DNA of 32,000 nt from Pseudidiomarina andamanensis (GCF_009734345.1 NZ_CP032551.1:2310001-2342000), one strand, 5' to 3'; positions 6,481-31,694 are shown, counted from the first letter of the stretch. Notes: a model not told the origin generated them from the sequence alone. Numbers and translations: made by a program.

Positions 6481-6650
6481 CGTTAGTCGTTGTTCGTTAT
6501 TCGTTAGTCGTTATTGGTTATTCGTTATTGGTTATTCGAAAAAGCGAAATGAAAAACCCAAAACATCACAACGAAAAGTGAGCTAATACGTCTGCGAATT
6601 CTCCGGCTAACAAAACTCACGAATAACCAATAACGAATAACGAATAACGT
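6481..6650. repeat. Heptamer-armed hairpin element, copy a
   Basis: The left arm is 6482-6537 with 8 units (GTTAGTC GTTGTTC GTTATTC GTTAGTC GTTATTG GTTATTC GTTATTG GTTATTC). The core is 6538-6619. The right arm is 6621-6648 with 4 units (GAATAAC CAATAAC GAATAAC GAATAAC). The element fills nearly all of the rimK-to-M14 spacer. Confidence 0.9.
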
Positions 6651-6664
6651 TTTTGCTTTTGTTG

Positions 6665-8022: not shown

Positions 8023-8173
8023 CGTTGTTCGTTGTTCGTTATTCGTTATTCGTTATTCGTTGTTCGTGAGTTTGGTTCGCTGGAGAATTCGAGAACGAAT
8101 TTGCTTACTTTTCTGTGCGATGTTTTTGGTTTTTCGTTTTTTTCGAATAACGAATAACCAATAACGAATCACG
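8023..8173. repeat. Heptamer-armed hairpin element, copy b
   Basis: The left arm is 8024-8065 with 6 units (GTTGTTC x2, GTTATTC x3, GTTGTTC). The core at 8066-8143 is homologous to the reverse complement of the copy-a core. The right arm is 8145-8172 (GAATAAC GAATAAC CAATAAC GAATCAC). The last unit contains the stop codon of the gene at 8169-8855. Confidence 0.9.
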
Positions 8174-12443: not shown

Positions 12444-13235
12444 GTGCTCTTAACGGGCTGGTTATGGTGTTTAGCCGGAGGTATGGTGGCAGGCTTGTTA
12501 GCCGGCATGCTCGGTATTGGCGGCGGCCTCGTGATTGTTCCTCTACTGATTTACTTGTTGCCATTATTGGGCGTTGCACCTGATCTGGTGGTGCAAATGG
12601 CGGTAGCCACCTCACTTGCAACCATTGTGATGACCACGTCCAGCTCGGCACGGTCGCATTTGAAGCATGGGCAGGTAAGTTTCTTTTGGGTTCGACGCTT
12701 AATTCCCGGCCTGATGGTAGGCGCCGTGTTGGGTGCTTGGTTAGCAACACTGATACATCCAGAGTGGCTCCAACGTATTTTCGCGGTGGTATTAATGTTG
12801 CTTTCTATTCGAATGCTGATACCACAACGCGGCGGTGAACCGCTCACTGATGTCTCGAAGCGATTGATGGCGTTGATTAGCACTGGCATGGGTACCCTAT
12901 CAGCACTGGTTGGTATAGGTGGTGGCTCGCTAACCGTGCCGCTACTGCAAAGGTTACGAGTTCCCATCCGTCAGGCAATTGCGGTATCCTCTGTGGGAAG
13001 TTTAAGTATCGGTTTAAGTGCCGTCATTGCATTTATTGTGCTCGGTCAACAATTAGAAGGTGCAGATGGTCTGCTTGGGTATGTGCACGTGAAAGCGTGG
13101 CTCGCAATTTCAATCACATCAATGTTATTTGCGCCGATCGGAGCGAGCCTCACACAACGCTTGCCGGTTAAACATTTGCAACGTGGGTTCGCGGTATTTT
13201 TAGTCTTTATTTCAATCAAATTAGCAATAGGATAA
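12444..13235 (+). CDS. TSUP (TauE/SafE, YfcA-like) family anion permease
   Basis: The start is GTG after GGAG. The 263-aa polytopic protein carries the duplicated motif GMLGIGGGLVIVPLL / LVGIGGGSLTVPLL. Confidence 0.75.
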   Translation: MLLTGWLWCLAGGMVAGLLAGMLGIGGGLVIVPLLIYLLPLLGVAPDLVVQMAVATSLATIVMTTSSSARSHLKHGQVSFFWVRRLIPGLMVGAVLGAWLATLIHPEWLQRIFAVVLMLLSIRMLIPQRGGEPLTDVSKRLMALISTGMGTLSALVGIGGGSLTVPLLQRLRVPIRQAIAVSSVGSLSIGLSAVIAFIVLGQQLEGADGLLGYVHVKAWLAISITSMLFAPIGASLTQRLPVKHLQRGFAVFLVFISIKLAIG

Positions 13236-13238
13236 TTG

Positions 13239-14081
13239 ATGCAAACAGGCATGACGCAAGCAGCCATCACGCAAACAGAGTACATGGTGCATCCAAGTAT
13301 CGATCCGATTATTGTCAGTATCGGGCCATTTGATTTACGCTGGTATGGCTTGATGTACCTCGTTGGTTTTCTGTTTGCTTGGTGGTGGGGCAACCGGCAG
13401 TGCCGTATGCCGCATTATGCAAATCAAGGCTGGACAGAAAAACGCTTCAGCGATTTGCTGTTTTGGGCGTTTATGGGCGTTATCTTAGGCGGCCGTATTG
13501 GCTACGTACTGTTTTATCAGTTCGATTACTTCCTACAAAATCCGTTATATCTGTTCGACATAACCAGTGGCGGTATGTCATTCCACGGTGGCATGTTGGG
13601 CGTGATTACGGTGTTATGGCTATTTGCGGCGAAAACCAAACAATCGCTACTTGCTGTGGGCGACTTTATCGCACCGCTAGTGCCAGTAGGTTTAGGTGCA
13701 GGTCGCATCGGTAATTTCATTAATGGCGAGTTGTGGGGGCGTGTGACCGATGTACCGTGGGCGATGATTTTCCCCGCAGCGGGACCTCTGCCACGTCACC
13801 CGTCACAGCTCTATCAAGCAGCTTTAGAGGGTGTCGTATTGTTTATTGTGCTGGCGCTCTACAGTCGCAAACCACGACCAGTTGGCGCTATTGGTGGGTT
13901 ATTTCTGATTGGTTACGGTCTAGCGCGGTTTGCGGTGGAATATGCTCGTGAACCAGATAGCCATTTAGGCCTATTAACCTTCGGTTGGTCGATGGGACAG
14001 TGGTTATCGGCACCAATGATTGTTGTTGGCGCGGTGCTAATGTTGCTAGCTTATAAAAATAAAAACGGAGCAAACGCGTGA
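13239..14081 (+). CDS. lgt: Phosphatidylglycerol-prolipoprotein diacylglyceryl transferase
   Basis: [82 protein letters not shown] and [17 protein letters not shown] are collinear with E. coli Lgt. ATG 13239 lies 6 nt after AGGA. Confidence 0.92.
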
Positions 14082-14929
14082 AACAGTATTTAGAACTCTG
14101 CCAACGAATTGTCGATGATGGCGTTTGGATTGAAAACGAACGTACCGGCAAACGCTGTTTGACTGTCATCAACGCAGACCTTGAGTATCGTGTTGACCGC
14201 AATGAATTTCCGTTAATCACCACCCGCAAAAGCTACTGGAAAGCAGCCATTGCCGAGCTTTTGGGTTATATTCGAGGTTACTCGAACGCCGCTGATTTCC
14301 GCGCCCTCGGCACCCCAACTTGGGATGCGAATGCAAACTTAAATGAAGCTTGGCTTGCTAACCCGCACCGCAAAGGTGAAGACGACATGGGCCGCGTTTA
14401 CGGTGTACAAGGACGTGCTTGGGCAAAACCTGACGGCGGCGTTATTGATCAGTTGCGTAAAGTGGTTGATAACCTGTCGCGCGGCATGGATGATCGAGGC
14501 GAAATCATCAGTTTCTATAACCCAGGCGAGTTTCATATGGGCTGTCTACGCCCGTGTATGCACACCCACAACTTCTCGCTACTTGGTGATACCTTGTACT
14601 TAACCAGTTATCAACGCTCGTGTGATGTGCCGTTGGGCCTGAACTTTAACCAAGTACAAGTATTCACGTTCTTGGCGTTAATGGCGCAAATTACCGGCCA
14701 CAAAGCTGGCGTTGCGTACCATAAAATCGTCAACGCACATATTTACGAAGACCAACTTGAACTGATGCGCGATGTGCAACTGAAGCGCGAGCCATACCCA
14801 GCGCCGCAGCTTGAAATCAACCCAGACATCAAAACCCTCGAAGACTTAGAAACCTGGGTGACCATGGACGACTTCGCCGTCCACAACTACAAACACCACC
14901 CACCAATCGCATACCCTTTCAGCGTGTAG
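14078..14929 (+). CDS. thyA: Thymidylate synthase (283-aa form)
   Basis: The GTG start overlaps the lgt stop (GTGA). [38 protein letters not shown] and [15 protein letters not shown] (active-site Cys region) are present. Confidence 0.9.
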
Positions 14930-14975
14930 CCCGGCCTTCTCTTACAGAAGGAACGCCGGGTGGCGCGAAGCGCCG
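14930..14975 (+). terminator. Double hairpin module immediately after the thyA stop (CCCGGC...GCCGGG, then GGCGC-GAA-GCGCC)
   Basis: The stems are read directly from the sequence. There is no clear T-tract, so terminator function is uncertain. A near-identical module follows the tcdA stop at 20348-20380. Confidence 0.4.
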
Positions 14976-14982
14976 TGTTGAC

Positions 14983-15070
14983 GTTATTGGTTATTCGTTA
15001 TTCGAAGAGAGCTTTGAGTAACGACTCGGCATTGCAACAAACCCCAGAGCTCCTAGACACGAATAACCAA
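14983..15070. repeat. Heptamer-armed element, copy c (short arms)
   Basis: The left arm is GTTATTG GTTATTC GTTATTC (14983-15003). A distinct core follows, then a single right unit GAATAAC (15061-15067). Confidence 0.7.
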
Positions 15071-15488
15071 AGTGAAAGAAGGGTATGTATATCCCCCCTT
15101 TTTGAAAAACCAAGTTTTCATTGACTAGTATAAAGTGCTTAATACGTTACCTAAGTGCTATTTTGTTGTGATTGGGTTCTTTTTATAGGTCTTTATCGTA
15201 GCTTTCTTTAATCTTGAGGTTTTGGTTGCCGACATCATTTAATATCCGATTATTCGTACTTTTCAAGCTAAAACTCATAATAAAGTTCAATTATGGTAAT
15301 ATAAGCCGCATTTTGAATTTTCATGTTTTTCAGAGAATAGCCCCACACATACACCCATCAACGCAGTCCCCCAACCCTACCAGTTTCTATTTCTTTTTGT
15401 GTCTCAAATATCGCATTTAATAGCTAAAATAATCAGTCAAAGTGCAAATAAAAGAACTTTACTTTATCTATCGCAAGGTCTACGCTTT

Positions 15489-15577
15489 AACGAATAACGA
15501 ATAACGAATAACGAATAACGAATAACGAATAACGAATAACGAATAACGAATAACGAATAACGAATAACGAATAACGG
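15489..15577. repeat. Perfect tandem array of 12 x CGAATAA, right-arm type only
   Basis: Twelve identical 7-bp units span 15491-15574. The array ends 11 nt before the hipB-like ATG at 15586. Confidence 0.97.
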
Positions 15578-15585
15578 ACGAAGCC

Positions 15586-15912
15586 ATGCTCTCACCTGCA
15601 GCCCAAGCCGAACAACTCGGCGAACGCCTCAAACAAGCGCGACTTAACGCGAATATTACCCAAGTGCAGCTTGCAGAGCAGGCAGGGGTATCGCGTAAGA
15701 TTGTATTGAATGCCGAAAAAGGCCAAGCCACGCTTGAGAACTTTGTCGCCTTAATGCAAGCGCTTGATCTCACTGCACAGTTAGATAATTTCTTGCCGCC
15801 ACAACCAATATCTCCGGTGCAGCTGAAAAAGCTGCAAGGCAAGAAGCGTAAGCGCGCGACAGGCTCTCGAAGCAAAGGATACGATGACGAATTGGATGTT
15901 GATGCATGGTAA
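15586..15912 (+). CDS. hipB: XRE-family HTH antitoxin, HipB-like
   Basis: The HTH is ITQVQLAEQAGVSRKIVLNAEKGQ, the protein is 108 aa, and it overlaps the downstream HipA gene. Confidence 0.8.
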   Translation: MLSPAAQAEQLGERLKQARLNANITQVQLAEQAGVSRKIVLNAEKGQATLENFVALMQALDLTAQLDNFLPPQPISPVQLKKLQGKKRKRATGSRSKGYDDELDVDAW

Positions 15913-17222
15913 TGGAAGTTATTGGAGTATGGTACCAAGACCGCGAAGTTGGCGCGTTGAGTTTTGACACGGCGCGTGGTGTTGGTGCATTTGAATATAC
16001 GCCAGAATTTCTAACCAGTGGTATTGAGTTAGCACCACTGAAAATGCCACTAAAAAAACAAATTTATAGCTTTCCTGAATTAAACTTTGAAACCTTTCAC
16101 GGACTACCAGGCCTCACGGCTGATTCGCTTCCAGATGATTTTGGTAATGCGGTGCTCAATGCATGGGTAGCTAGCCAAGGTAAACAACCGAGCGACATTA
16201 CGCCGTTGCAGCGCCTGCAATATACAGGTAGGCGCGGCATGGGCGCACTTGAGTATCGACCGGCGACACGGCTTCGGGGCTTTGAGAAGTCGCAAGACGT
16301 TGAAATCAAAGAGCTCATTAAAGTGGCGCAAGACGTACTGAATAAACGCTCGCAATTTCACGTCGAGCTTGATCCGAGTGGTAAAACAGATCAAGAGGCG
16401 ATGTTGTCGTTGCTCTCGGTAGGGATGAGCGCTGGTGGCGCTAGACCCAAAGCGGTATTAGCCTTCAGTGGTGATTTTACCGAAGTGTGCTCAGGCCAAA
16501 CCGATGCACCTGAAGGGTTTGTGCATTACATCATGAAGTTCGATGGTGTGACCGAGCGCACTATTCAGCGGGAAACATTTGATGATCCGCAAGGGTTCGG
16601 AGCCATGGAGTACGTCTATTATTTGATGGCGCGTGAGTGCGGTATCGAGATGATGCCATGCCATTTGTTGGACGAGGGCGATCGGCGCCACTTTTTAACG
16701 CAACGATTTGATCGCCGTGATAACGAAAAGCTTCATGTGCAAACGCTGACAGGTATCGCACATGTCGATTTCAAAAAGCCTGGAAGTTTTTCCTACGCTG
16801 AGCTATTCGCCGTCGCGCGACAACTCAAGCTCAACGCTCATGAGGCGGAGCAGCTTCTACGACGCATGATTTTTAATATAGTCGCCCGCAATCATGACGA
16901 CCACGCAAAGAATTTCGCGTTTCTCTATCAAAACAACCGCTGGCAACTCGCACCAGCGTATGATCTTGCATACAGTTACAAGCCTGGTAGTAAATGGGTG
17001 AATCAACACTGGATGCAGCTCAACGGTAAACGAGAAGACTTCACTCGCGCCGATCTACATAGCCTCGAAAAAGTCAGCCCTATGTTTACCCGCAAGCGCA
17101 TCGACGCCATTCTCGAGCAAACCACTGAAGCAGTCTCCAAATGGCGACACCTCGCCAAAGAGCAACAAGTACCAGTCGACTTAATTAACGAGATCGCCTC
17201 GAATCACCGCCTCGACCTCTAA
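15906..17222 (+). CDS. hipA: HipA-family serine/threonine kinase toxin
   Basis: The 438-aa protein has an N-terminal HipA coupling region (VGALSFD, GLPGLTADSLPD), a P-loop-like GMSAGGARPKAVL, the catalytic loop ARNHDDHAKNFAF and LAPAYDL. ATG 15906 overlaps hipB by 7 nt. ATG 15912 (TAATG) is an alternative start. Confidence 0.88.
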   Translation: MVMEVIGVWYQDREVGALSFDTARGVGAFEYTPEFLTSGIELAPLKMPLKKQIYSFPELNFETFHGLPGLTADSLPDDFGNAVLNAWVASQGKQPSDITPLQRLQYTGRRGMGALEYRPATRLRGFEKSQDVEIKELIKVAQDVLNKRSQFHVELDPSGKTDQEAMLSLLSVGMSAGGARPKAVLAFSGDFTEVCSGQTDAPEGFVHYIMKFDGVTERTIQRETFDDPQGFGAMEYVYYLMARECGIEMMPCHLLDEGDRRHFLTQRFDRRDNEKLHVQTLTGIAHVDFKKPGSFSYAELFAVARQLKLNAHEAEQLLRRMIFNIVARNHDDHAKNFAFLYQNNRWQLAPAYDLAYSYKPGSKWVNQHWMQLNGKREDFTRADLHSLEKVSPMFTRKRIDAILEQTTEAVSKWRHLAKEQQVPVDLINEIASNHRLDL

Positions 17223-17248
17223 TATCCAATATCCAATATCTAATATCG
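17221..17248. repeat. Short tandem heptamer AATATCC AATATCC AATATCT AATATCG
   Basis: Read directly from the sequence. It starts inside the hipA stop codon. This is a different unit from the CGAATAA family. Confidence 0.8.
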
Positions 17249-17313
17249 TTTTTGCTTTTCTATTTTGATAATCTCAATGTTCGTCAAATAATAACAACAA
17301 AAGTGAGCATCGG

Positions 17314-19119
17314 ATGTCAGTCGTCGCATGGATTGCTTTAGCAATTTTATTGTTGGCAGTATTTTTATTTTTTAAATTCAGAAAATTTCGTGGGTTTGTT
17401 TTTCTGACTTTGTTTGCCGCACTATTGGGCATGATATTTGGTCCTCCGTCTTATGTGGTGCACGAAGGCTACACTACAACCCTACGAAACGATCCAACTA
17501 ATACGCGCTATCATTATGCTTGGGCTGTCAATAAACTGGCGCCGACAGAAGCAAAGCGGGCAAAATTGGGCATTTATAATCCCGAAACAGGTGAATTTCA
17601 GCGCTTCAATGAGGAGCTGGCAAAATCTGCTAATCTCGCATTTATTCCGCCAAGCCAACCAACTTGGTTGCTCAATATTTGGTGGTGGATATTTCCAGCA
17701 ACCTATTTGGCGTTCTATATTCAGCGCCGATTTGGGCTATTAGCCAGCTTTGGCGGTGTATTTTACTTCGCGCGGCGTAACAAAAACTGCCAAGAAAAAC
17801 TCGATTTTGCTCGACAACAACGAACGATCTGGGCGTACGAAGATGCTCTAAAACTTTTCCAAAGCTATCGTTTCAAACCCAAACGATTTATTGAACAGGC
17901 GACGCAAGAGTCGGCAGCTATTTACCAGACTTATAAATTACGTGTGCAAACACTCCAGAAACTGTATCGAAATGCCGCAGAGACGCTGCAAAATCGCGAT
18001 GTCACTGCATTCACGAAAACGGGTAAGTTGTTTGCCATTGCTGATTTTATGGGGCTTCTTGGTGAATTGCTGCATGACCGAGAACGCACACAGATGCCGA
18101 ACCTTGCACTCGAGATAACGTTGGATAAGAACTGGCATTTATTTAGCCCAGAACACCGAAAATTTGTCGGTTATTCGAGCATTACAGAGCTTGAGAACAC
18201 CAAACTCAATCAAATTGAAGAGCGTTGGCGCCGAGAAATATCCTCTGCACAACCGATCTCACAGCTGACCGAGTACTATGCGCAAAATGTGAAGTCATTT
18301 GAACAGCAACGCGATAACGTGCGTACGACGGAGTCCGCGCAAAATTACGTTTCTGCAGAGTTGGCGGCGTTTTGGCAGGTGGCTGAATCTCAACTAGCCG
18401 GTGAGTTAACTGAGCAAAACCGCGTCAGCGCACAACGTTACGCGAATGATTATTTTATTAATCGACTGTTTAAAGCGGTGTCAGATCCGACCGCTTTTAA
18501 GTATTTTCATCAATCGTTTGAGAAAAACTTGAGCAAGACGCTCGCCATCATTTTCTCTTCCTATTTTCCAGAAGAACAATGGCATGGTCGGGCACTATTT
18601 AGCGAGCAAAAATCCGAGTCGATTCAGCAGCGGCAATTGCTTTTCAAATTGATTCCAACCGGTCGCTTAACCGGCGGTGCTCCAACCGTTGAAAGTGAGG
18701 TGTCACAGTGGGTTGGTCAGCAAACGGTTTGGGTGAGACGGTTGAATCAACCGCAGCTACCAAATCGATTTAAATCAAAGGCCGATGCATTCGGTGATAT
18801 CACAGCAACGGCCATGTTACGAGATGCGTTCAACACCAGAAAGCAGATACCACAACCGAACTCTCATAAAGTAACAGAACTTGCTCAAAAACATGTCTTA
18901 GATGAACTAAATGAGACGGTGAAAGAGCTTGCACATGGAGTCGGTGAAGACCTCGCACTCGAGTTGATCAACCAAATTATTGACGGCAACGGCGTTAATG
19001 CAATTATCCAATTTGAACAAGTTGTTGATAGCGAATTAAGTAGTCTGGTATTCAATTCGCTAGAAAACGCGGCAAGCTTATTTGAAGCAGGTTTAGGCTT
19101 TTTGGGAGGTGATGATTAA
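17314..19119 (+). CDS. Hypothetical 601-aa inner-membrane protein (about 4 N-terminal TM helices plus a large helical soluble region); no recognisable domain
   Basis: This is a long uninterrupted ORF. Its hydrophobic segments are VVAWIALAILLLAVFLFF, FVFLTLFAALLGMIFG, WLLNIWWWIFPATYLAFYI and LLASFGGVFYFA. The remainder is rich in Q/E/K/R heptad-like sequence. I see no catalytic motif. Confidence 0.6.
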   Translation: MSVVAWIALAILLLAVFLFFKFRKFRGFVFLTLFAALLGMIFGPPSYVVHEGYTTTLRNDPTNTRYHYAWAVNKLAPTEAKRAKLGIYNPETGEFQRFNEELAKSANLAFIPPSQPTWLLNIWWWIFPATYLAFYIQRRFGLLASFGGVFYFARRNKNCQEKLDFARQQRTIWAYEDALKLFQSYRFKPKRFIEQATQESAAIYQTYKLRVQTLQKLYRNAAETLQNRDVTAFTKTGKLFAIADFMGLLGELLHDRERTQMPNLALEITLDKNWHLFSPEHRKFVGYSSITELENTKLNQIEERWRREISSAQPISQLTEYYAQNVKSFEQQRDNVRTTESAQNYVSAELAAFWQVAESQLAGELTEQNRVSAQRYANDYFINRLFKAVSDPTAFKYFHQSFEKNLSKTLAIIFSSYFPEEQWHGRALFSEQKSESIQQRQLLFKLIPTGRLTGGAPTVESEVSQWVGQQTVWVRRLNQPQLPNRFKSKADAFGDITATAMLRDAFNTRKQIPQPNSHKVTELAQKHVLDELNETVKELAHGVGEDLALELINQIIDGNGVNAIIQFEQVVDSELSSLVFNSLENAASLFEAGLGFLGGDD

Positions 19120-19505
19120 TGAAGACGTCTAGTTTTGTTCTATTCATGACGCTCATTGTCAGCATGCCTGTTCAGGCACAAGACAGCTGGGGGCGAAAGC
19201 TTGGCGAAGTACTCGGTGAATTGCCGTTGGCAGATTATTATCGAAGTGCCACCAGTTTCAATGATGTGCATTGGGTAAATGATGCCCAACTGCGAGAAGC
19301 GAATGTGCTGTACAAGATTAGCGCAAGTAGCAACGTGAATGTGCGTGCCGCCGCAACCACCGACAGCGCTGTCATATCAAGTTTACCAGCAAATAGTCTC
19401 GTGCAGATTCTGTCAAAACGACCGTTTGAGCCATGGTTTAAAGTTCAATTAGCTGGCGGAACCGAAGGATTTATTCACGAGAGTTTACTTGTTCGCGTCG
19501 AATAA
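19119..19505 (+). CDS. Exported SH3b (bacterial SH3-like) domain protein
   Basis: A signal peptide MKTSSFVLFMTLIVSMPVQAQ is followed by NVNVRAAATTDSAVISSLPANSLVQILSKRPFEPWFKVQLAGGTEGFIHESLL, which looks like an SH3_3-type fold. The start overlaps the upstream stop (TAATG). Confidence 0.65.
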   Translation: MKTSSFVLFMTLIVSMPVQAQDSWGRKLGEVLGELPLADYYRSATSFNDVHWVNDAQLREANVLYKISASSNVNVRAAATTDSAVISSLPANSLVQILSKRPFEPWFKVQLAGGTEGFIHESLLVRVE

Positions 19506-19549
19506 GGCTGACAAACGCACTGAATGATTAGCTAACGCACTGGCAGAAA

Positions 19550-19558
19550 TGGTAGAAT
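19550..19558 (+). promoter_or_regulatory. Candidate extended -10 promoter element (TGGTAGAAT) for tcdA
   Basis: TGnTAGAAT lies 30 nt upstream of the tcdA ATG. Two copies of AACGCACTG precede it (19514-19522 and 19534-19542). Confidence 0.4.
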
Positions 19559-19588
19559 GCGCCCGGTTTTTCAGGTGAGAGTGGGTTC

Positions 19589-20347
19589 ATGAGCAAAGAG
19601 CGTTTTGCGGGTATTCAACGCGTTTACGGCACGGCCGCAGCGCAATCATTTCAACAGCACCACGTTGCGGTGATTGGCTTGGGCGGCGTTGGCTCATGGG
19701 CGGTTGAGGCGCTGGCGCGCTCTGGTATTGGCGCACTCACGTTGATTGATCTCGACGATGTATGCGTGACGAATATCAATCGCCAGTTACCAGCACTAAC
19801 AAGCACAGTTGGTCAACTTAAAACAGAAGTATTAGCCGCACGGGTAAAAGATATTAATCCAGACTGCGAAGTACGCGTGATTGACGATTTCCTGTCAGCG
19901 GACAACCTCAACGAATATCTCGGTGAACCGGTCACCGCCGTATTAGATGCCATTGATAGTGTGACGGTGAAAGCAGCATTGATTGCTTGGTGTAAGCGCC
20001 GAAAGGTGCCGATGGTGACCTGTGGTGGTGCCGGTGGGCAGATTGACCCAAGCCAAGTGAAGTCGGGCGACTTAGCCAAAGCCACGCAAGATCCGCTGTT
20101 AGCGAAAGTTCGTTCCATGCTGCGTCGCGATTATAACTTCTCAAAGAACCCGAAACGTTCGTTTGGTGTCACCGCCGTGCACTCGACCGAGCAATTACGC
20201 TATCCGACGGGCGACGGCGAATGGTCGCACGCTAAACCCGGCGCTGGCAGCATGCGTATGGATTGCGCCACCGGCTTTGGCGCCGCCATGCCGGTCACCG
20301 CCACCTTCGCCATGCACGCGACCGCATTACTCCTGAAAAAACTGTAG
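19589..20347 (+). CDS. tcdA: tRNA threonylcarbamoyladenosine dehydratase (ThiF/MoeB-like E1 fold)
   Basis: ERFAGIQRVYG, VIGLGGVGSWAVEALARSGIG, LIDLDDVCVTNINRQ and the 252-aa length fit TcdA. The gene is convergent with csdE, as in E. coli. Confidence 0.85.
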   Translation: MSKERFAGIQRVYGTAAAQSFQQHHVAVIGLGGVGSWAVEALARSGIGALTLIDLDDVCVTNINRQLPALTSTVGQLKTEVLAARVKDINPDCEVRVIDDFLSADNLNEYLGEPVTAVLDAIDSVTVKAALIAWCKRRKVPMVTCGGAGGQIDPSQVKSGDLAKATQDPLLAKVRSMLRRDYNFSKNPKRSFGVTAVHSTEQLRYPTGDGEWSHAKPGAGSMRMDCATGFGAAMPVTATFAMHATALLLKKL

Positions 20348-20380
20348 CCCGGCGTTTTACGCTGGGGGCGCGAAGCGCCG
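20348..20380. terminator. Hairpin module between convergent tcdA and csdE (CCCGGCG...GCTGGGG, then GGCGC-GAA-GCGCC)
   Basis: It has the same architecture and the same GGCGCGAAGCGCCGT string as the module after thyA. It fills the entire 33-nt gap between the two stop codons. Confidence 0.4.
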
Positions 20381-22604: not shown

Positions 22605-22724
22605 GTTAGCCGTTATTCGTTATTGGTTATTCGAAAGAGCGAAAACCAAAAGCGTAAAAACCGAAAATCTCCGTTGCACTTTGTGCGCGGAGATTTTTTT
22701 ATCTTTAACGAGTAACCAATAACG
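22605..22724. repeat. Heptamer-armed hairpin element, copy e, with an embedded terminator-like hairpin
   Basis: The left arm is GTTAGCC GTTATTC GTTATTG GTTATTC (22605-22632). The core contains ATCTCCG...CGGAGAT (22667-22694) followed by TTTTTTT. The right arm is GAGTAAC CAATAAC (22710-22723). Confidence 0.85.
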
Positions 22725-22850
22725 TTTTTCGGTTTTCTTTGCGGTTTTTTAACTATGCAAAGTGCGTGGACAGATTTTGAGACCGTTGCTATAACATCCA
22801 TATACGTCAATGATCATATATCAACGTTTATAGTGAAGGATGCTCAAGGC

Positions 22851-23726
22851 ATGAAAACAATACTAACAAAGTCTCTGACAGCATTAACCCTGACCACCGC
22901 CCTTACTGTTATCAGTGCACCAAACGCACAAGCTGAGACCATTGAAGTGCGCGGCCATATTAATTATGGCTATAGCTTCAATCCAACGGGAGTGACTCAA
23001 TACCAAGGTGGCGAGTACGTGCTTGAAATTACGCAGCGTCCGCAAATGCCACTGGTATATGCCGCGAGTACATGGCGCCAATACAGTGATGCTATCGATC
23101 GCGTCACTGTTTCAGTGTATGACAGCGAAGGCAATGCGGTGAGCGTACGTCAACCACTGGCCGCAACCGAGCTCGGTGAACCAACCACCAATACTTTATA
23201 TTTCGATTATGGATACCGCTCAAATTACACCAGCTGGACCATGCTCGGATTAAATAAAGATGGTTACAACAGCCAACTCAATTTAAATCTGCGCGGGCCG
23301 CGCGATAGCTTGTTTGCATCAACGGCTGAGTTTCCACGTTTCGTAAACACTCCCCGGTACGTGAACGCTACTATGTTTTCAAACGTGGAAACCGCCGATG
23401 GTGATGATGTCGTCTATATTTATGGCCCGGTTACGGAAGTGAATTACCTCACTGCAGATAGTGACGGCGATGGCATTAATGATGACGTTGATGCTTGTCC
23501 AGCGTCAGACATCAGCCGCACTGTGGTCATTGATTTTACGGATACCGGTGTTTCCAATAGTGTGGATAGCACAGGTTGCTCGGTAACCGACAAAATTTTG
23601 GCATGCCAAGCCGACGCGAAAAACCGTGGTGATTTTGTTTCTTGCGCGAGCCACTTGGCGAAGCAGTTGCGTAAAGAAGGTGTCATCAGCAATAGTGAAC
23701 ACGGCGCACTCCTCCGTCACCTCTAA
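22851..23726 (+). CDS. Hypothetical secreted protein with an acidic Ca-binding-type repeat
   Basis: The start is taken at MKTILTKSLTALTLTTALTVISAPNAQA (signal peptide). The motif DSDGDGINDDVDACP resembles thrombospondin type-3 / OmpA-like Ca-binding repeats. The C-terminus is Cys-rich. Confidence 0.6.
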   Translation: MKTILTKSLTALTLTTALTVISAPNAQAETIEVRGHINYGYSFNPTGVTQYQGGEYVLEITQRPQMPLVYAASTWRQYSDAIDRVTVSVYDSEGNAVSVRQPLAATELGEPTTNTLYFDYGYRSNYTSWTMLGLNKDGYNSQLNLNLRGPRDSLFASTAEFPRFVNTPRYVNATMFSNVETADGDDVVYIYGPVTEVNYLTADSDGDGINDDVDACPASDISRTVVIDFTDTGVSNSVDSTGCSVTDKILACQADAKNRGDFVSCASHLAKQLRKEGVISNSEHGALLRHL

Positions 23727-23734
23727 AGTCAAAA

Positions 23735-23870
23735 CGTTATTCGTTGTTCGTTATTGGTTAATCGAAAAACCGAATAGCGAAAAAGCCTGAAGACCGAAAA
23801 TCTCCGCTGCGCTCTGCGCACGGAGATTTTTTATGTTTAACGAACAACGAATAACGATTAACGAACAACG
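23735..23870. repeat. Heptamer-armed hairpin element, copy f
   Basis: The left arm is GTTATTC GTTGTTC GTTATTG GTTAATC (23736-23763). The core is homologous to the copy-e core, including the ATCTCCGCTGCGC...GCGCACGGAGAT hairpin (23800-23827) plus a T-run. The right arm is GAACAAC GAATAAC GATTAAC GAACAAC (23842-23869). Confidence 0.9.
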
Positions 23871-23957
23871 ATTTTTTTCCTAACGAATCACTTGCATATT
23901 TGTAACTCATCGGACATGATTGAACCTATAACATCCTAATCGGATTAGGTGGCTAAC

Positions 23958-25847: not shown

Positions 25848-25939
25848 CGTTAATCGTTAATCGTTATTCGTTACTCGTTAAATGTGCCTAGAATCGAATA
25901 ACTAGTAACGAATAACCAATAACGAATAACCAATAACGA
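25848..25939. repeat. Heptamer-armed hairpin element, copy g (minimal core)
   Basis: The left arm is GTTAATC GTTAATC GTTATTC GTTACTC (25849-25876). The centre is about 18 nt. The right arm has 6 units, GAATAAC TAGTAAC GAATAAC CAATAAC GAATAAC CAATAAC (25896-25937), and runs into GAGG, the likely SD of the next gene. Confidence 0.9.
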
Positions 25940-29644: not shown

Positions 29645-30310
29645 ATGACAGCACAGGCATTCAGCTGGAGCGACCTGCTCGGCGATGAAAAGAATCAACC
29701 GTATTTTCTTGAGCTCATGCAGCGGGTACAGTGCGAACGCAATGCGGGTAAACAAATTTATCCACCAAGCGACCAGGTATTTCAGGCATTTAAACTGACT
29801 GCGCTAGCTGATTTGAAGGTTGTGATACTCGGTCAAGACCCATATCACGGCCCAGGCCAAGCTCATGGCTTATGTTTTTCAGTACCAGCTGGGGTGAAGC
29901 ACCCGCCGTCACTGCGTAATATCTTCAAAGCCATTCAGCACGATTATCCTGATTTTCAGATACCTGAGTCAGGTAATTTAGAACACTGGGCGCAGCAAGG
30001 CGTGCTGCTGTTAAATACGGTGTTGACGGTGGAGCAGGGCAAAGCTCACTCACATGCAAGTTGGGGATGGGAAACTTTCACCGATAAAGTGGTTGAACAA
30101 ATTAACCAGCATTGCGAAGGTATCGTGTTCTTGTTGTGGGGTGCGCATGCACAAAAGAAAGGCGCGTTGATTAATCGCAAGCGCCATCATGTTTTAGAGA
30201 CGGTGCATCCGTCGCCGTTATCGGCGCATCGCGGCTTTCTCACCGCTGGCCACTTCCGCCAAACCAACCAACTGCTCACGCAGCAAGGCAAAAGCGTTAT
30301 TCGTTTTTAG
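29645..30310 (+). CDS. ung: Uracil-DNA glycosylase
   Basis: [31 protein letters not shown] and HPSPLSA are present in a 221-aa protein. The last about 5 codons (VIRF-stop) lie inside the left arm of repeat copy h. Confidence 0.93.
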
Positions 30311-30389
30311 TTATTCGTTACTCGTTATTCGAGGGTCTCGATTTTCGCTTTTGGTTTATCGAATAACCAATAACGAGTAACGAACAACG
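30296..30389. repeat. Heptamer-armed hairpin element, copy h
   Basis: The left arm is GTTATTC GTTTTTA GTTATTC GTTACTC GTTATTC (30296-30330). The short core is AGGGTCTCGATTTTCGCTTTTGGTTTAT. The right arm is GAATAAC CAATAAC GAGTAAC GAACAAC (30361-30388). Confidence 0.9.
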
Positions 30390-31534: not shown

Positions 31535-31675
31535 CGTTACTCGTTATTCGTTATTGGTTATTTGTTGACGGCGGTAGCGAATAGCCAAGAATTCCGCGCA
31601 GCACCGGAGCAAAATTCGGAGCTGCGCGTAACAGCAAAAGAAGCCACGAATAACGAATAACCAATAACGAACAAC
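31535..31675. repeat. Heptamer-armed hairpin element, copy i
   Basis: The left arm is GTTACTC GTTATTC GTTATTG GTTATTT (31535-31562). The core holds an imperfect hairpin GCGCAGC...GCTGCGC. The right arm is GAATAAC GAATAAC CAATAAC GAACAAC (31647-31674). Confidence 0.9.
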
Positions 31676-31694
31676 GCAGTTAAAGGTTTAAACC

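Follow-up and report, generated by a model that had tools for sequence, protein, structure and literature searches.

A coupled membrane/SH3b gene pair in a variable slot beside hipBA of Pseudidiomarina andamanensis

The thyA-tcdA interval and its variable slot

We analyzed a window of 32,000 nt from the genome of Pseudidiomarina andamanensis and, within it, the interval between thyA and tcdA (14,930-19,588). In this interval a HipB/HipA toxin-antitoxin (TA) couple is followed by a gene for an orphan inner-membrane protein of 601 amino acids (aa) and a gene for a small exported protein with an SH3b domain. These last two genes, called the pair throughout, are the main subject of this study (Table 1). 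An earlier note on this DNA had described the genes from sequence; all of them were present at its coordinates in the map of open reading frames (ORFs), with thyA ending at 14929 and tcdA starting at 19589. Its view of the flanks as housekeeping genes agrees with the family matches of ThyA, TcdA and CsdE, the last of which belongs to the SufE/CsdE family in Pfam and NCBIfam. The note had further treated the whole 4.6 kb as one accessory segment, and here the comparison with relatives gives a different picture.

Five close relatives cover the spacer and hipBA: P. tainanensis (L004), P. marina (L005), two metagenome contigs (L001 and L094), and a further relative (L014) that was recovered by a ThyA-anchored metagenome scan (ThyA 96%, PtsP 94%). 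Four of them (L001, L004, L005 and L094) share the order mutH-rppH-ptsP-tauE-lgt-thyA-hipB-hipA-603aa-SH3-tcdA-csdE-etfBA, which argues that the segment is no recent insertion in the genome of the window. In L014, thyA, hipB and hipA (73-74% identical) are followed by ccdA-ccdB in place of the pair, and higBA sits between tcdA and csdE (TA coordinates in L014: 13197-13762 and 14590-15338). This makes the thyA-csdE stretch a hot spot for TA cassettes in this clade. hipBA was found at this locus in every genome sampled. The variable part is confined to the hipA-tcdA slot, whose cargo among the genomes compared is one of two allele classes of the pair (A or B) or ccdAB. Hence the variability proposed earlier holds for the pair-bearing part, where L014 carries ccdAB at precisely this position, with higBA following one gene later. 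It does not hold for the segment as a whole, which is neither absent nor non-syntenic in close relatives: all five keep the spacer architecture and hipBA in synteny. We give an even chance to the interpretation that the interval consists of three independent things, namely a conserved spacer, a vertically inherited HipBA system and an autonomous two-gene operon.

The orphan membrane protein and its exported partner

The 601-aa protein has no match in Pfam, NCBIfam, PADLOC or PHROGs, and its description as a true orphan without catalytic or family motif was borne out across these libraries. Pfam and NCBIfam scans of 17 family members gave scattered matches with E of at least 0.001, none of them common to more than 4 of the 17, and PADLOC v2 returned nothing for either protein of the pair in the window. 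A sequence profile search of the PDB with the family found designed helical bundles only. AlphaFold with four input sequences gave an unusable model (predicted local distance difference test, pLDDT, 51.8); the model adopted here was built from 17 family sequences (pLDDT 80.6, predicted template modelling score, pTM, 0.66). A fold search on such a model had been suggested in the earlier note. Foldseek, run with the whole chain as query and a significance threshold of E ≤ 0.001, found no neighbour in PDB or BFVD (best E 0.59 and 0.50, respectively). Two candidates among the best rows were considered and rejected: the PqiC/DUF330 fold (~108 aligned columns, probability 0.3-0.5), on its scores, and the ClyA-family α-pore-forming toxins (MakB, NheA and AhlB), with a vague helical-bundle likeness at a probability of at most 0.04. 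These rows all have E of at least 0.59 and a TM-score of at most 0.35 and are no evidence of a relationship.

According to the model, the protein probably has three transmembrane (TM) helices, a β-domain of ~70 aa in the periplasm and a domain of ~450 aa in the cytoplasm. This topology follows from the positively charged TM1-TM2 loop (KFRKFR), from two family members (P0005 and P0035) that are without TM1, and from a fourth hydrophobic stretch at residues 142-153 that is missing from distant family members. Four TM helices had been proposed before; three seem more likely, because this fourth stretch is only ~12 residues long and is not kept in distant members. The C-terminal part, previously thought to be about 440 helical residues, is mixed α/β in the model and not purely helical: long helices, including a hairpin at 190-259, are followed by a β-hairpin (267-287), helices (290-415), a β-sheet (430-477) and further helices (493-596). 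The C-terminus is disordered and acidic (isoelectric point 4.05 for residues 520-601) and ends in GGDD.

The partner carries a Sec-type signal peptide (ending in MPVQA, followed by QD) and an SH3_3 domain (PF08239, 1.3e-11, 45 bits against a cut-off of 27, residues 71-124). Between the signal peptide and the SH3b domain, partners throughout the family show the family-specific motif (G/S)WGxKLGxxLGELPLxD. A TAATG overlap joins the large gene and its partner, with the Shine-Dalgarno sequence GGGAGGTG just upstream, so that the earlier reading of an orphan gene coupled to an exported SH3b protein is confirmed in the sequence by overlap, signal peptide and SH3_3 domain. Downstream DNA is available for the pair loci of the window, L001, L004, L005 and L094 and, outside Pseudidiomarina, for L006/7, L008, L009, L010, L011 and L013. 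At all of these, counted as nine loci, a small gene for an exported protein comes directly after the large one; the two overlap by 1 or 4 nt in eight and are separated by an 11-nt gap in L094. Outside Pseudidiomarina the two proteins measure 616 and 129 aa (L006/7), 573 and 158 aa (L008), 565 and 138 aa (L009), 597 and 307 aa (L010), 600 and 132 aa (L013), and 437 and 92 aa in the truncated pair of L011. SH3_3 is clear in 7/9 partners, weak in L010 and without a match in L011. The pair is thus a translationally coupled and co-inherited two-gene module under selection, with one product in the membrane and the other exported.

The family is tiny, rare and patchy, and it matches no library tested. 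A word-indexed search of 5.8 billion clusters returned three homologues of the 601-aa protein, all close and from Pseudidiomarina or metagenome contigs; a profile search with the 16-sequence family alignment returned only these three, and exhaustive phmmer against 1.84 billion representative proteins gave 14 matches. For the partners, a profile search of 5.8 billion clusters found only 12, all at loci of the family. Distant members (18-34% identical) come from Rheinheimera soli, Marinobacter vulgaris, a gammaproteobacterial metagenome-assembled genome (MAG) and others, and all are annotated as hypothetical. The closest named relatives of the partner are YgiM-like SH3b proteins (TIGR04211, 'SH3 and anchor'), with which it shares the signal peptide and a single SH3_3 domain; a homologue appears in one source under the name 'YgiM (DUF1202 family)'. 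However, the partner scores 20.7 bits in TIGR04211 against a cut-off of 65 and ends at the SH3 domain without the C-terminal anchor; it has its own N-terminal GWG...LGELPL motif and always stands behind the orphan membrane gene. Literature on Pseudidiomarina TA systems, SH3b defence systems and Idiomarina heptamers yielded nothing relevant.

Allele classes, autonomy of the pair and the neighbouring features

Between the window and its relatives, most flanking housekeeping genes are 92-99% identical at the protein level (csdE and orf323 82-91%), and HipB and HipA 92-97% (L014 excluded). In the pair these values fall to 55-57% for the 601-aa protein and 58-61% for the SH3 partner. DNA identity starts to drop in the 3' part of hipA (~17050-17250), reaches 36-75% within the pair and recovers to ~80-90% at the start of tcdA; L004 and L005, compared with each other, stay at ~80% across the same hipA-pair-tcdA stretch. 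The window is closest to L005 in every flanking gene (csdE 91%, orf323 90%, others 95-99%). In the pair, L005 groups with L004, L001 and L094 (80-88%, class B) and the window (class A) is equally far from all of them. Class A is found beyond the window as well: partner variants are 88-91% identical, and on their contigs, L095 and L096, the C-terminus of the large protein is of the window type too, with tcdA downstream of the class A pair in L095.

Nonsynonymous divergence (dN) between the classes is ~0.36-0.41 and synonymous sites are saturated (proportion of synonymous differences, pS, 0.77-0.92), compared with a dN of 0.005-0.05 in the flanks and a pS of 0.33-0.66 there between the window and L005. 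Within class A (L095 and L096 against the window) synonymous divergence (dS) is 0.5-1.9 and dN/dS 0.02-0.11; within class B dN/dS is 0.05-0.07. The divergence between classes is spread unevenly, with the cytoplasmic core (residues 190-480) only 23-48% identical, the membrane and periplasmic part (1-153) 65-77% and the C-terminal helices (521-601) 68-72%; in the partner the N-terminal motif is 82-89%, the SH3b domain 60% and the linker 28% identical. Taken together, these data show two old allele classes, each under purifying selection, whose distribution is at odds with the phylogeny of the flanks. Such a distribution points to allele exchange or long-lived polymorphism rather than to a burst in place. 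The GC content of the pair is 0.445 against ~0.50 in the flanks; GC and GC at third codon positions were considered as a sign of foreign origin and set aside, the difference being modest and not decisive. Another fast-evolving gene of the window encodes a 323-aa protein downstream of etfA (orf323, 22755-23726). Close relatives match this protein at 82-90% identity and L014 at 51%, compared with 92-99% for etfA.

The gap between hipA and the pair contains a degenerate heptamer arm, 85% similar to an arm at 6622-6660 and kept in both allele classes with 4-6 copies (AATATCY four times in the window and L004, six times in L005). It also contains a promoter-like site whose ATAATAAC element is kept in L001, L004 and L005, hence in both allele classes. 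A simple scan of the + strand found no terminators in the gap or after the pair, as had been noted before. A survey of homologues, also suggested earlier, showed that the pair is conserved as a unit and that co-occurrence with hipBA is seen only in Pseudidiomarina. hipBA is absent from all six pair loci outside this genus, and neither hipBA nor a recognised TA or defence gene is an immediate neighbour of the pair at these six independent loci. The contexts there are all different (tauE; aceK and a transposase; an exopolysaccharide (EPS) glycosyltransferase cluster; RNase T; CNNM and MscS), and the neighbouring unknown genes have no Pfam or PADLOC match except for a DUF3800 gene in R. soli. Since hipBA is lacking at the six outside loci and L014 keeps hipBA without the pair, the functional link between HipA and the pair that had been suggested is without comparative support. 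Judged from its conserved upstream region and these contexts, the pair seems to be a self-contained module with its own promoter-like site, independent of hipBA.

Some observations were made on the surroundings of individual pair loci. In R. soli (L008) the pair adjoins an rve-family transposase and the DUF3800 gene lies two genes away, with a weak PADLOC match (PDC-M04A, E 6e-06); among the contexts outside Pseudidiomarina, this stretch (12479-14227) alone gives a hint of mobility or defence. The MAG locus L006/L007 has a TauE-family gene two genes before the pair (8687-9451 in L006). The window has one as well (12444-13235), ~4 kb upstream of the pair, and the shared TauE is probably coincidence. 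Small upstream membrane genes (131 aa in L006, 222 aa in L012) were considered as a third component and rejected, as they are not conserved across loci and have no family match.

The HipB/HipA genes form a canonical couple, as first described: the antitoxin gene lies directly upstream, the genes overlap by 7 nt, and HipA has both its domains (Couple_hipA, PF13657, 2e-19, 70 bits against 22.5; HipA_C, PF07804, 8e-53, 180 bits against 30.5). The translation contains NHDDHAKN and APAYD, which we take to be the catalytic and Mg-binding motifs of HipA, intact here. Four relatives have a HipB of 93-97% identity and L014 one of 73%, and dN/dS of hipA against the relatives is 0.02-0.03. By these measures hipBA is an ordinary member of a known family and appears to be vertically inherited in this Pseudidiomarina clade. 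It shares with HipBA of Escherichia coli the gene order, the overlap of stop and start, a helix-turn-helix (HTH) antitoxin whose last residue is Trp, the two HipA domains and the catalytic motifs of the kinase. However, the window HipA is not the same as the E. coli equivalog (its sole NCBIfam match is YjjJ, 35.7 bits against a cut-off of 401), and the likeness is limited to 15586-17222 and leaves the pair unexplained.

The spacer between thyA and hipB, whose hairpin and heptamer array had been listed among the accessory features, has a fixed architecture. A left heptamer arm and a right array bracket the AT-rich spacer, and the same arrangement, including a twin hairpin just past the thyA stop, occurs in all relatives. 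Because this architecture is common to all of them and the repeats occur across the window, the features of the spacer are no insertion scars. The twin hairpin, kept after thyA in 5/5 relatives, is probably a shared terminator or an element of the repetitive extragenic palindromic (REP) type. A direct-repeat copy follows the tcdA stop; the two copies were ruled out as scars resembling attachment (att) sites, since every relative keeps the thyA copy, even L014, which lacks the pair. The AT-rich spacer presumably holds the hipBA promoter and operators. It shows conserved islands with large indels between them across relatives, and scans of the window, this spacer included, found no Rfam families or tRNAs.

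Unit and copy number of the right array differ in every relative (7-mers in 4-13 copies, 16-mers in P. marina and 23-mers in L014). This variation could alter the hipBA 5' untranslated region or promoter spacing, and it hints at slippage-driven variation of expression. At least eight of the window's intergenic regions contain degenerate inverted pairs of the form (CGTTATT)n...(CGAATAA)n, and their arms often enclose a short core with a terminator-like hairpin; only the array upstream of hipB is long and perfect (12.7 copies). The heptamer arrays look like a genome-wide repeat system of the REP or miniature inverted-repeat transposable element (MITE) kind.

Table 1. Features of the thyA-tcdA interval and related repeats; positions count from the first nucleotide of the window
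Feature	Position	Strand	Description
Inverted heptamer spacers	6481-6649, 8023-8173, 14982-15576, 22611-22735, 23735-23871, 25848-25939, 30295-30389, 31535-31676		
thyA	14078-14929		ThyA confirmed by Pfam/NCBIfam
Twin hairpin (earlier 'repeat copy c')	14927-14975	+	TAGCCCGGC...GCCGGG then GGCGCGAAGCGCC
Left heptamer arm	14982-15004	+	CGTTATT x3.3; reverse complement of right array
AT-rich gene-less spacer	15005-15487		483 bp; GC ~0.35
Right heptamer array	15488-15576	+	Perfect CGAATAA x12.7; 100% matches, score 178; ends 9 nt before hipB ATG
hipB	15586-15912	+	108-aa HTH antitoxin; HTH_3 3e-08; couple_hipB 9e-10, below cut-off
hipA	15906-17222	+	438-aa serine/threonine-kinase toxin
Degenerate heptamer arm	17221-17259	+	AATATCY x4 then CGTTTTTGCTTTT; directly after hipA stop; family D2
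hipA-pair gap	17223-17313		91 nt
Promoter-like site	17265-17292	+	TTGATA-16-AATAAT; upstream of pair; 10/12, consensus match only
Large gene of the pair	17314-19119	+	Orphan inner-membrane protein, 601 aa
TM helices (model)			TM1 residues 3-19; TM2 23-42; TM3 117-140
Periplasmic β-domain (predicted)	17443-17661		Residues 44-116; four strands at 47-97 in model
Cytoplasmic α/β domain (predicted)			Residues 154-601; ~450 aa
Allele-variable core	17881-18753		Residues 190-480
Partner gene of the pair	19119-19505	+	Exported partner, 128 aa
Partner signal peptide			Residues 1-21
Partner N-motif region	19185-19268		Residues 23-50
Partner SH3b domain	19323-19502		Residues 69-128
tcdA	19589-20347		TcdA 342 bits against cut-off 304; csdE, etfBA next
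Second twin-hairpin copy	20345-20380		Direct repeat after tcdA stop; TAGCCCGGC...GCCGGG/GCTGGG then GGCGCGAAGCGCC

Possible roles of the pair

The most likely reading of the pair, as far as its sequences tell, is an envelope-spanning complex tethered to peptidoglycan. The large protein would insert into the inner membrane with its three TM helices, turning the β-domain outward to the periplasm and the large domain to the cytoplasm, and the small protein would be exported by Sec. Because the membrane and periplasmic part and the N-terminal motif of the partner are the best conserved regions between classes, the GWG...LGELPL motif might dock on the periplasmic β-domain. The SH3b domain could then bind peptidoglycan by analogy with other members of its family, so that the complex would couple the cell wall to the cytoplasmic domain. 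The variable core may set the specificity of whatever this domain binds or senses.

As to the role of such a complex, our best single guess, a tentative one, is a part in inter-genomic conflict (phage exclusion, or sensing of an envelope breach in the manner of abortive infection), because the slot is shared with TA systems, the distribution is patchy and the alleles are dimorphic. A niche role as envelope scaffold is about as likely. The envelope-linked stress or anti-phage function proposed in the earlier note is a possibility as well. Spelled out in full, the conflict interpretation would have a self-contained system that excludes phages, aborts infection or acts against other strains. In it the SH3b subunit, bound to peptidoglycan, would report a breach of the wall to the three-TM protein, the cytoplasmic domain of novel fold would act as sensor or effector, and frequency-dependent selection would keep the two deeply diverged classes among sister species; in this detailed form we consider it rather unlikely.

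Several points weigh against a wall-tethered conflict system. No PADLOC (v2) or PHROG match was found for any of the 17 members, apart from one chance-level PADLOC row (E 0.053), and tblastn with the 601-aa protein found no copy on plasmids or phages. The family has no catalytic or effector motif, its conserved positions being mostly aromatic, hydrophobic or structural, and most neighbourhoods of the pair outside Pseudidiomarina consist of ordinary housekeeping genes. Conservation analysis and AlphaFold model rest on a shallow alignment of ~17 sequences in all. Contact between the partner and the membrane protein is inferred from conservation between classes, and peptidoglycan binding, which is general for the SH3b domain family, is assumed here from that behaviour. 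Finally, should residues 142-153 cross the membrane in the allele of the window, the C-terminal domain would lie in the periplasm.

An alternative explanation is a lineage-restricted envelope housekeeping device or scaffold, for instance a peptidoglycan-anchored landmark or a tether between inner membrane and wall with a layout like FimV/HubP. It would involve no conflict, and the allele classes would stem from relaxed constraint on a non-catalytic scaffold and occasional recombination. The lack of an enzyme motif, the acidic C-terminus, the mostly housekeeping neighbourhoods elsewhere, the missing matches in defence and phage libraries and the purifying selection inside each class are all in line with it. 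However, the extreme rarity and patchiness (14 representatives among 1.84 billion, in unrelated genera) speaks against a scaffold, as does the fact that the pair is dispensable in the close relative L014 with ccdAB in its slot, and a sharp dimorphism at odds with the flanking phylogeny would be unusual for a housekeeping scaffold. We therefore regard it as possible, though on the doubtful side. In FimV/HubP-type proteins a peptidoglycan-binding domain in the periplasm and a TM segment are combined with a large cytoplasmic domain that is acidic and evolves fast. The pair is like them in that it would bind peptidoglycan outside and has, inside, a large and variable region of non-enzymatic character with an acidic end; it differs in that its peptidoglycan-binding domain belongs to a second protein and is of the SH3b instead of the LysM type, that there is no homology, and that the pair is a rare accessory rather than core. 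MotAB, and ZorAB as part of Zorya, are stator-like, peptidoglycan-tethered envelope devices with cytoplasmic output. They share with the pair a layout in which one component sits in the inner membrane and extends a long domain into the cytoplasm, while a periplasmic element would bind peptidoglycan. Such a layout might signal the condition of the envelope, but this is a resemblance of design only: the pair is without sequence or fold similarity to them, has no ZorA/ZorB match in PADLOC and no Foldseek match, lacks an OmpA-like domain and downstream effectors, and differs in TM number.

Turning to the origin of the allele classes, the divergence of the pair might also reflect a burst of positive selection in place, in the lineage of the window, instead of old alleles that were exchanged or are shared between species. 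This would fit the hipA/orf601 junction and the promoter region, which are collinear and conserved between classes, and the way in which divergence climbs gradually into the gene without a sharp breakpoint. It is hard to reconcile with class A in L095 and L096, whose dS and dN/dS argue that this class is old and stable, with a between-class pS well above that of the window-L005 flanks, and with L005, which is nearest to the window in all flanks and carries class B. We consider such a burst improbable.

Still less can be said for the pair as a HipA effector or accessory, co-transcribed from hipBA within one envelope-linked persistence or defence module. The pair does stand beside hipBA on the same strand in 5/5 Pseudidiomarina genomes that carry it, and the 91-nt gap has no terminator-like site. 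Yet the six loci outside Pseudidiomarina do without hipBA, L014 has hipBA with ccdAB instead of the pair, and the gap holds a conserved promoter-like element; moreover, hipBA remains 92-97% identical where the pair is replaced by an allele of 55% identity, so HipA does not co-vary with the pair. This makes a HipA accessory very unlikely. That both ORFs are spurious or a decaying remnant, for which one might cite the absence of a known family and the slightly lower GC (0.445 against ~0.50), has a next to negligible probability and is refuted by conservation, with intact full-length ORFs in nine loci, conserved coupling, a dN/dS of 0.02-0.11, a confident AlphaFold model and motifs kept down to 18% identity.

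What is new in the pair is a coupled membrane/SH3b module outside every family, defence and fold library tested; its newness lies in being unclassifiable, with no mechanism demonstrated. It occurs in few gammaproteobacterial lineages, is dimorphic between sister species and sits at a slot that otherwise hosts TA cassettes. If the pair is a niche scaffold, it would be one more uncharacterised family. If it is a conflict or envelope-sensing device, it would represent a new architecture, wall-tethered and made of two proteins with no known effector domain, and its two classes would offer a clean natural pair of alleles for specificity swaps.

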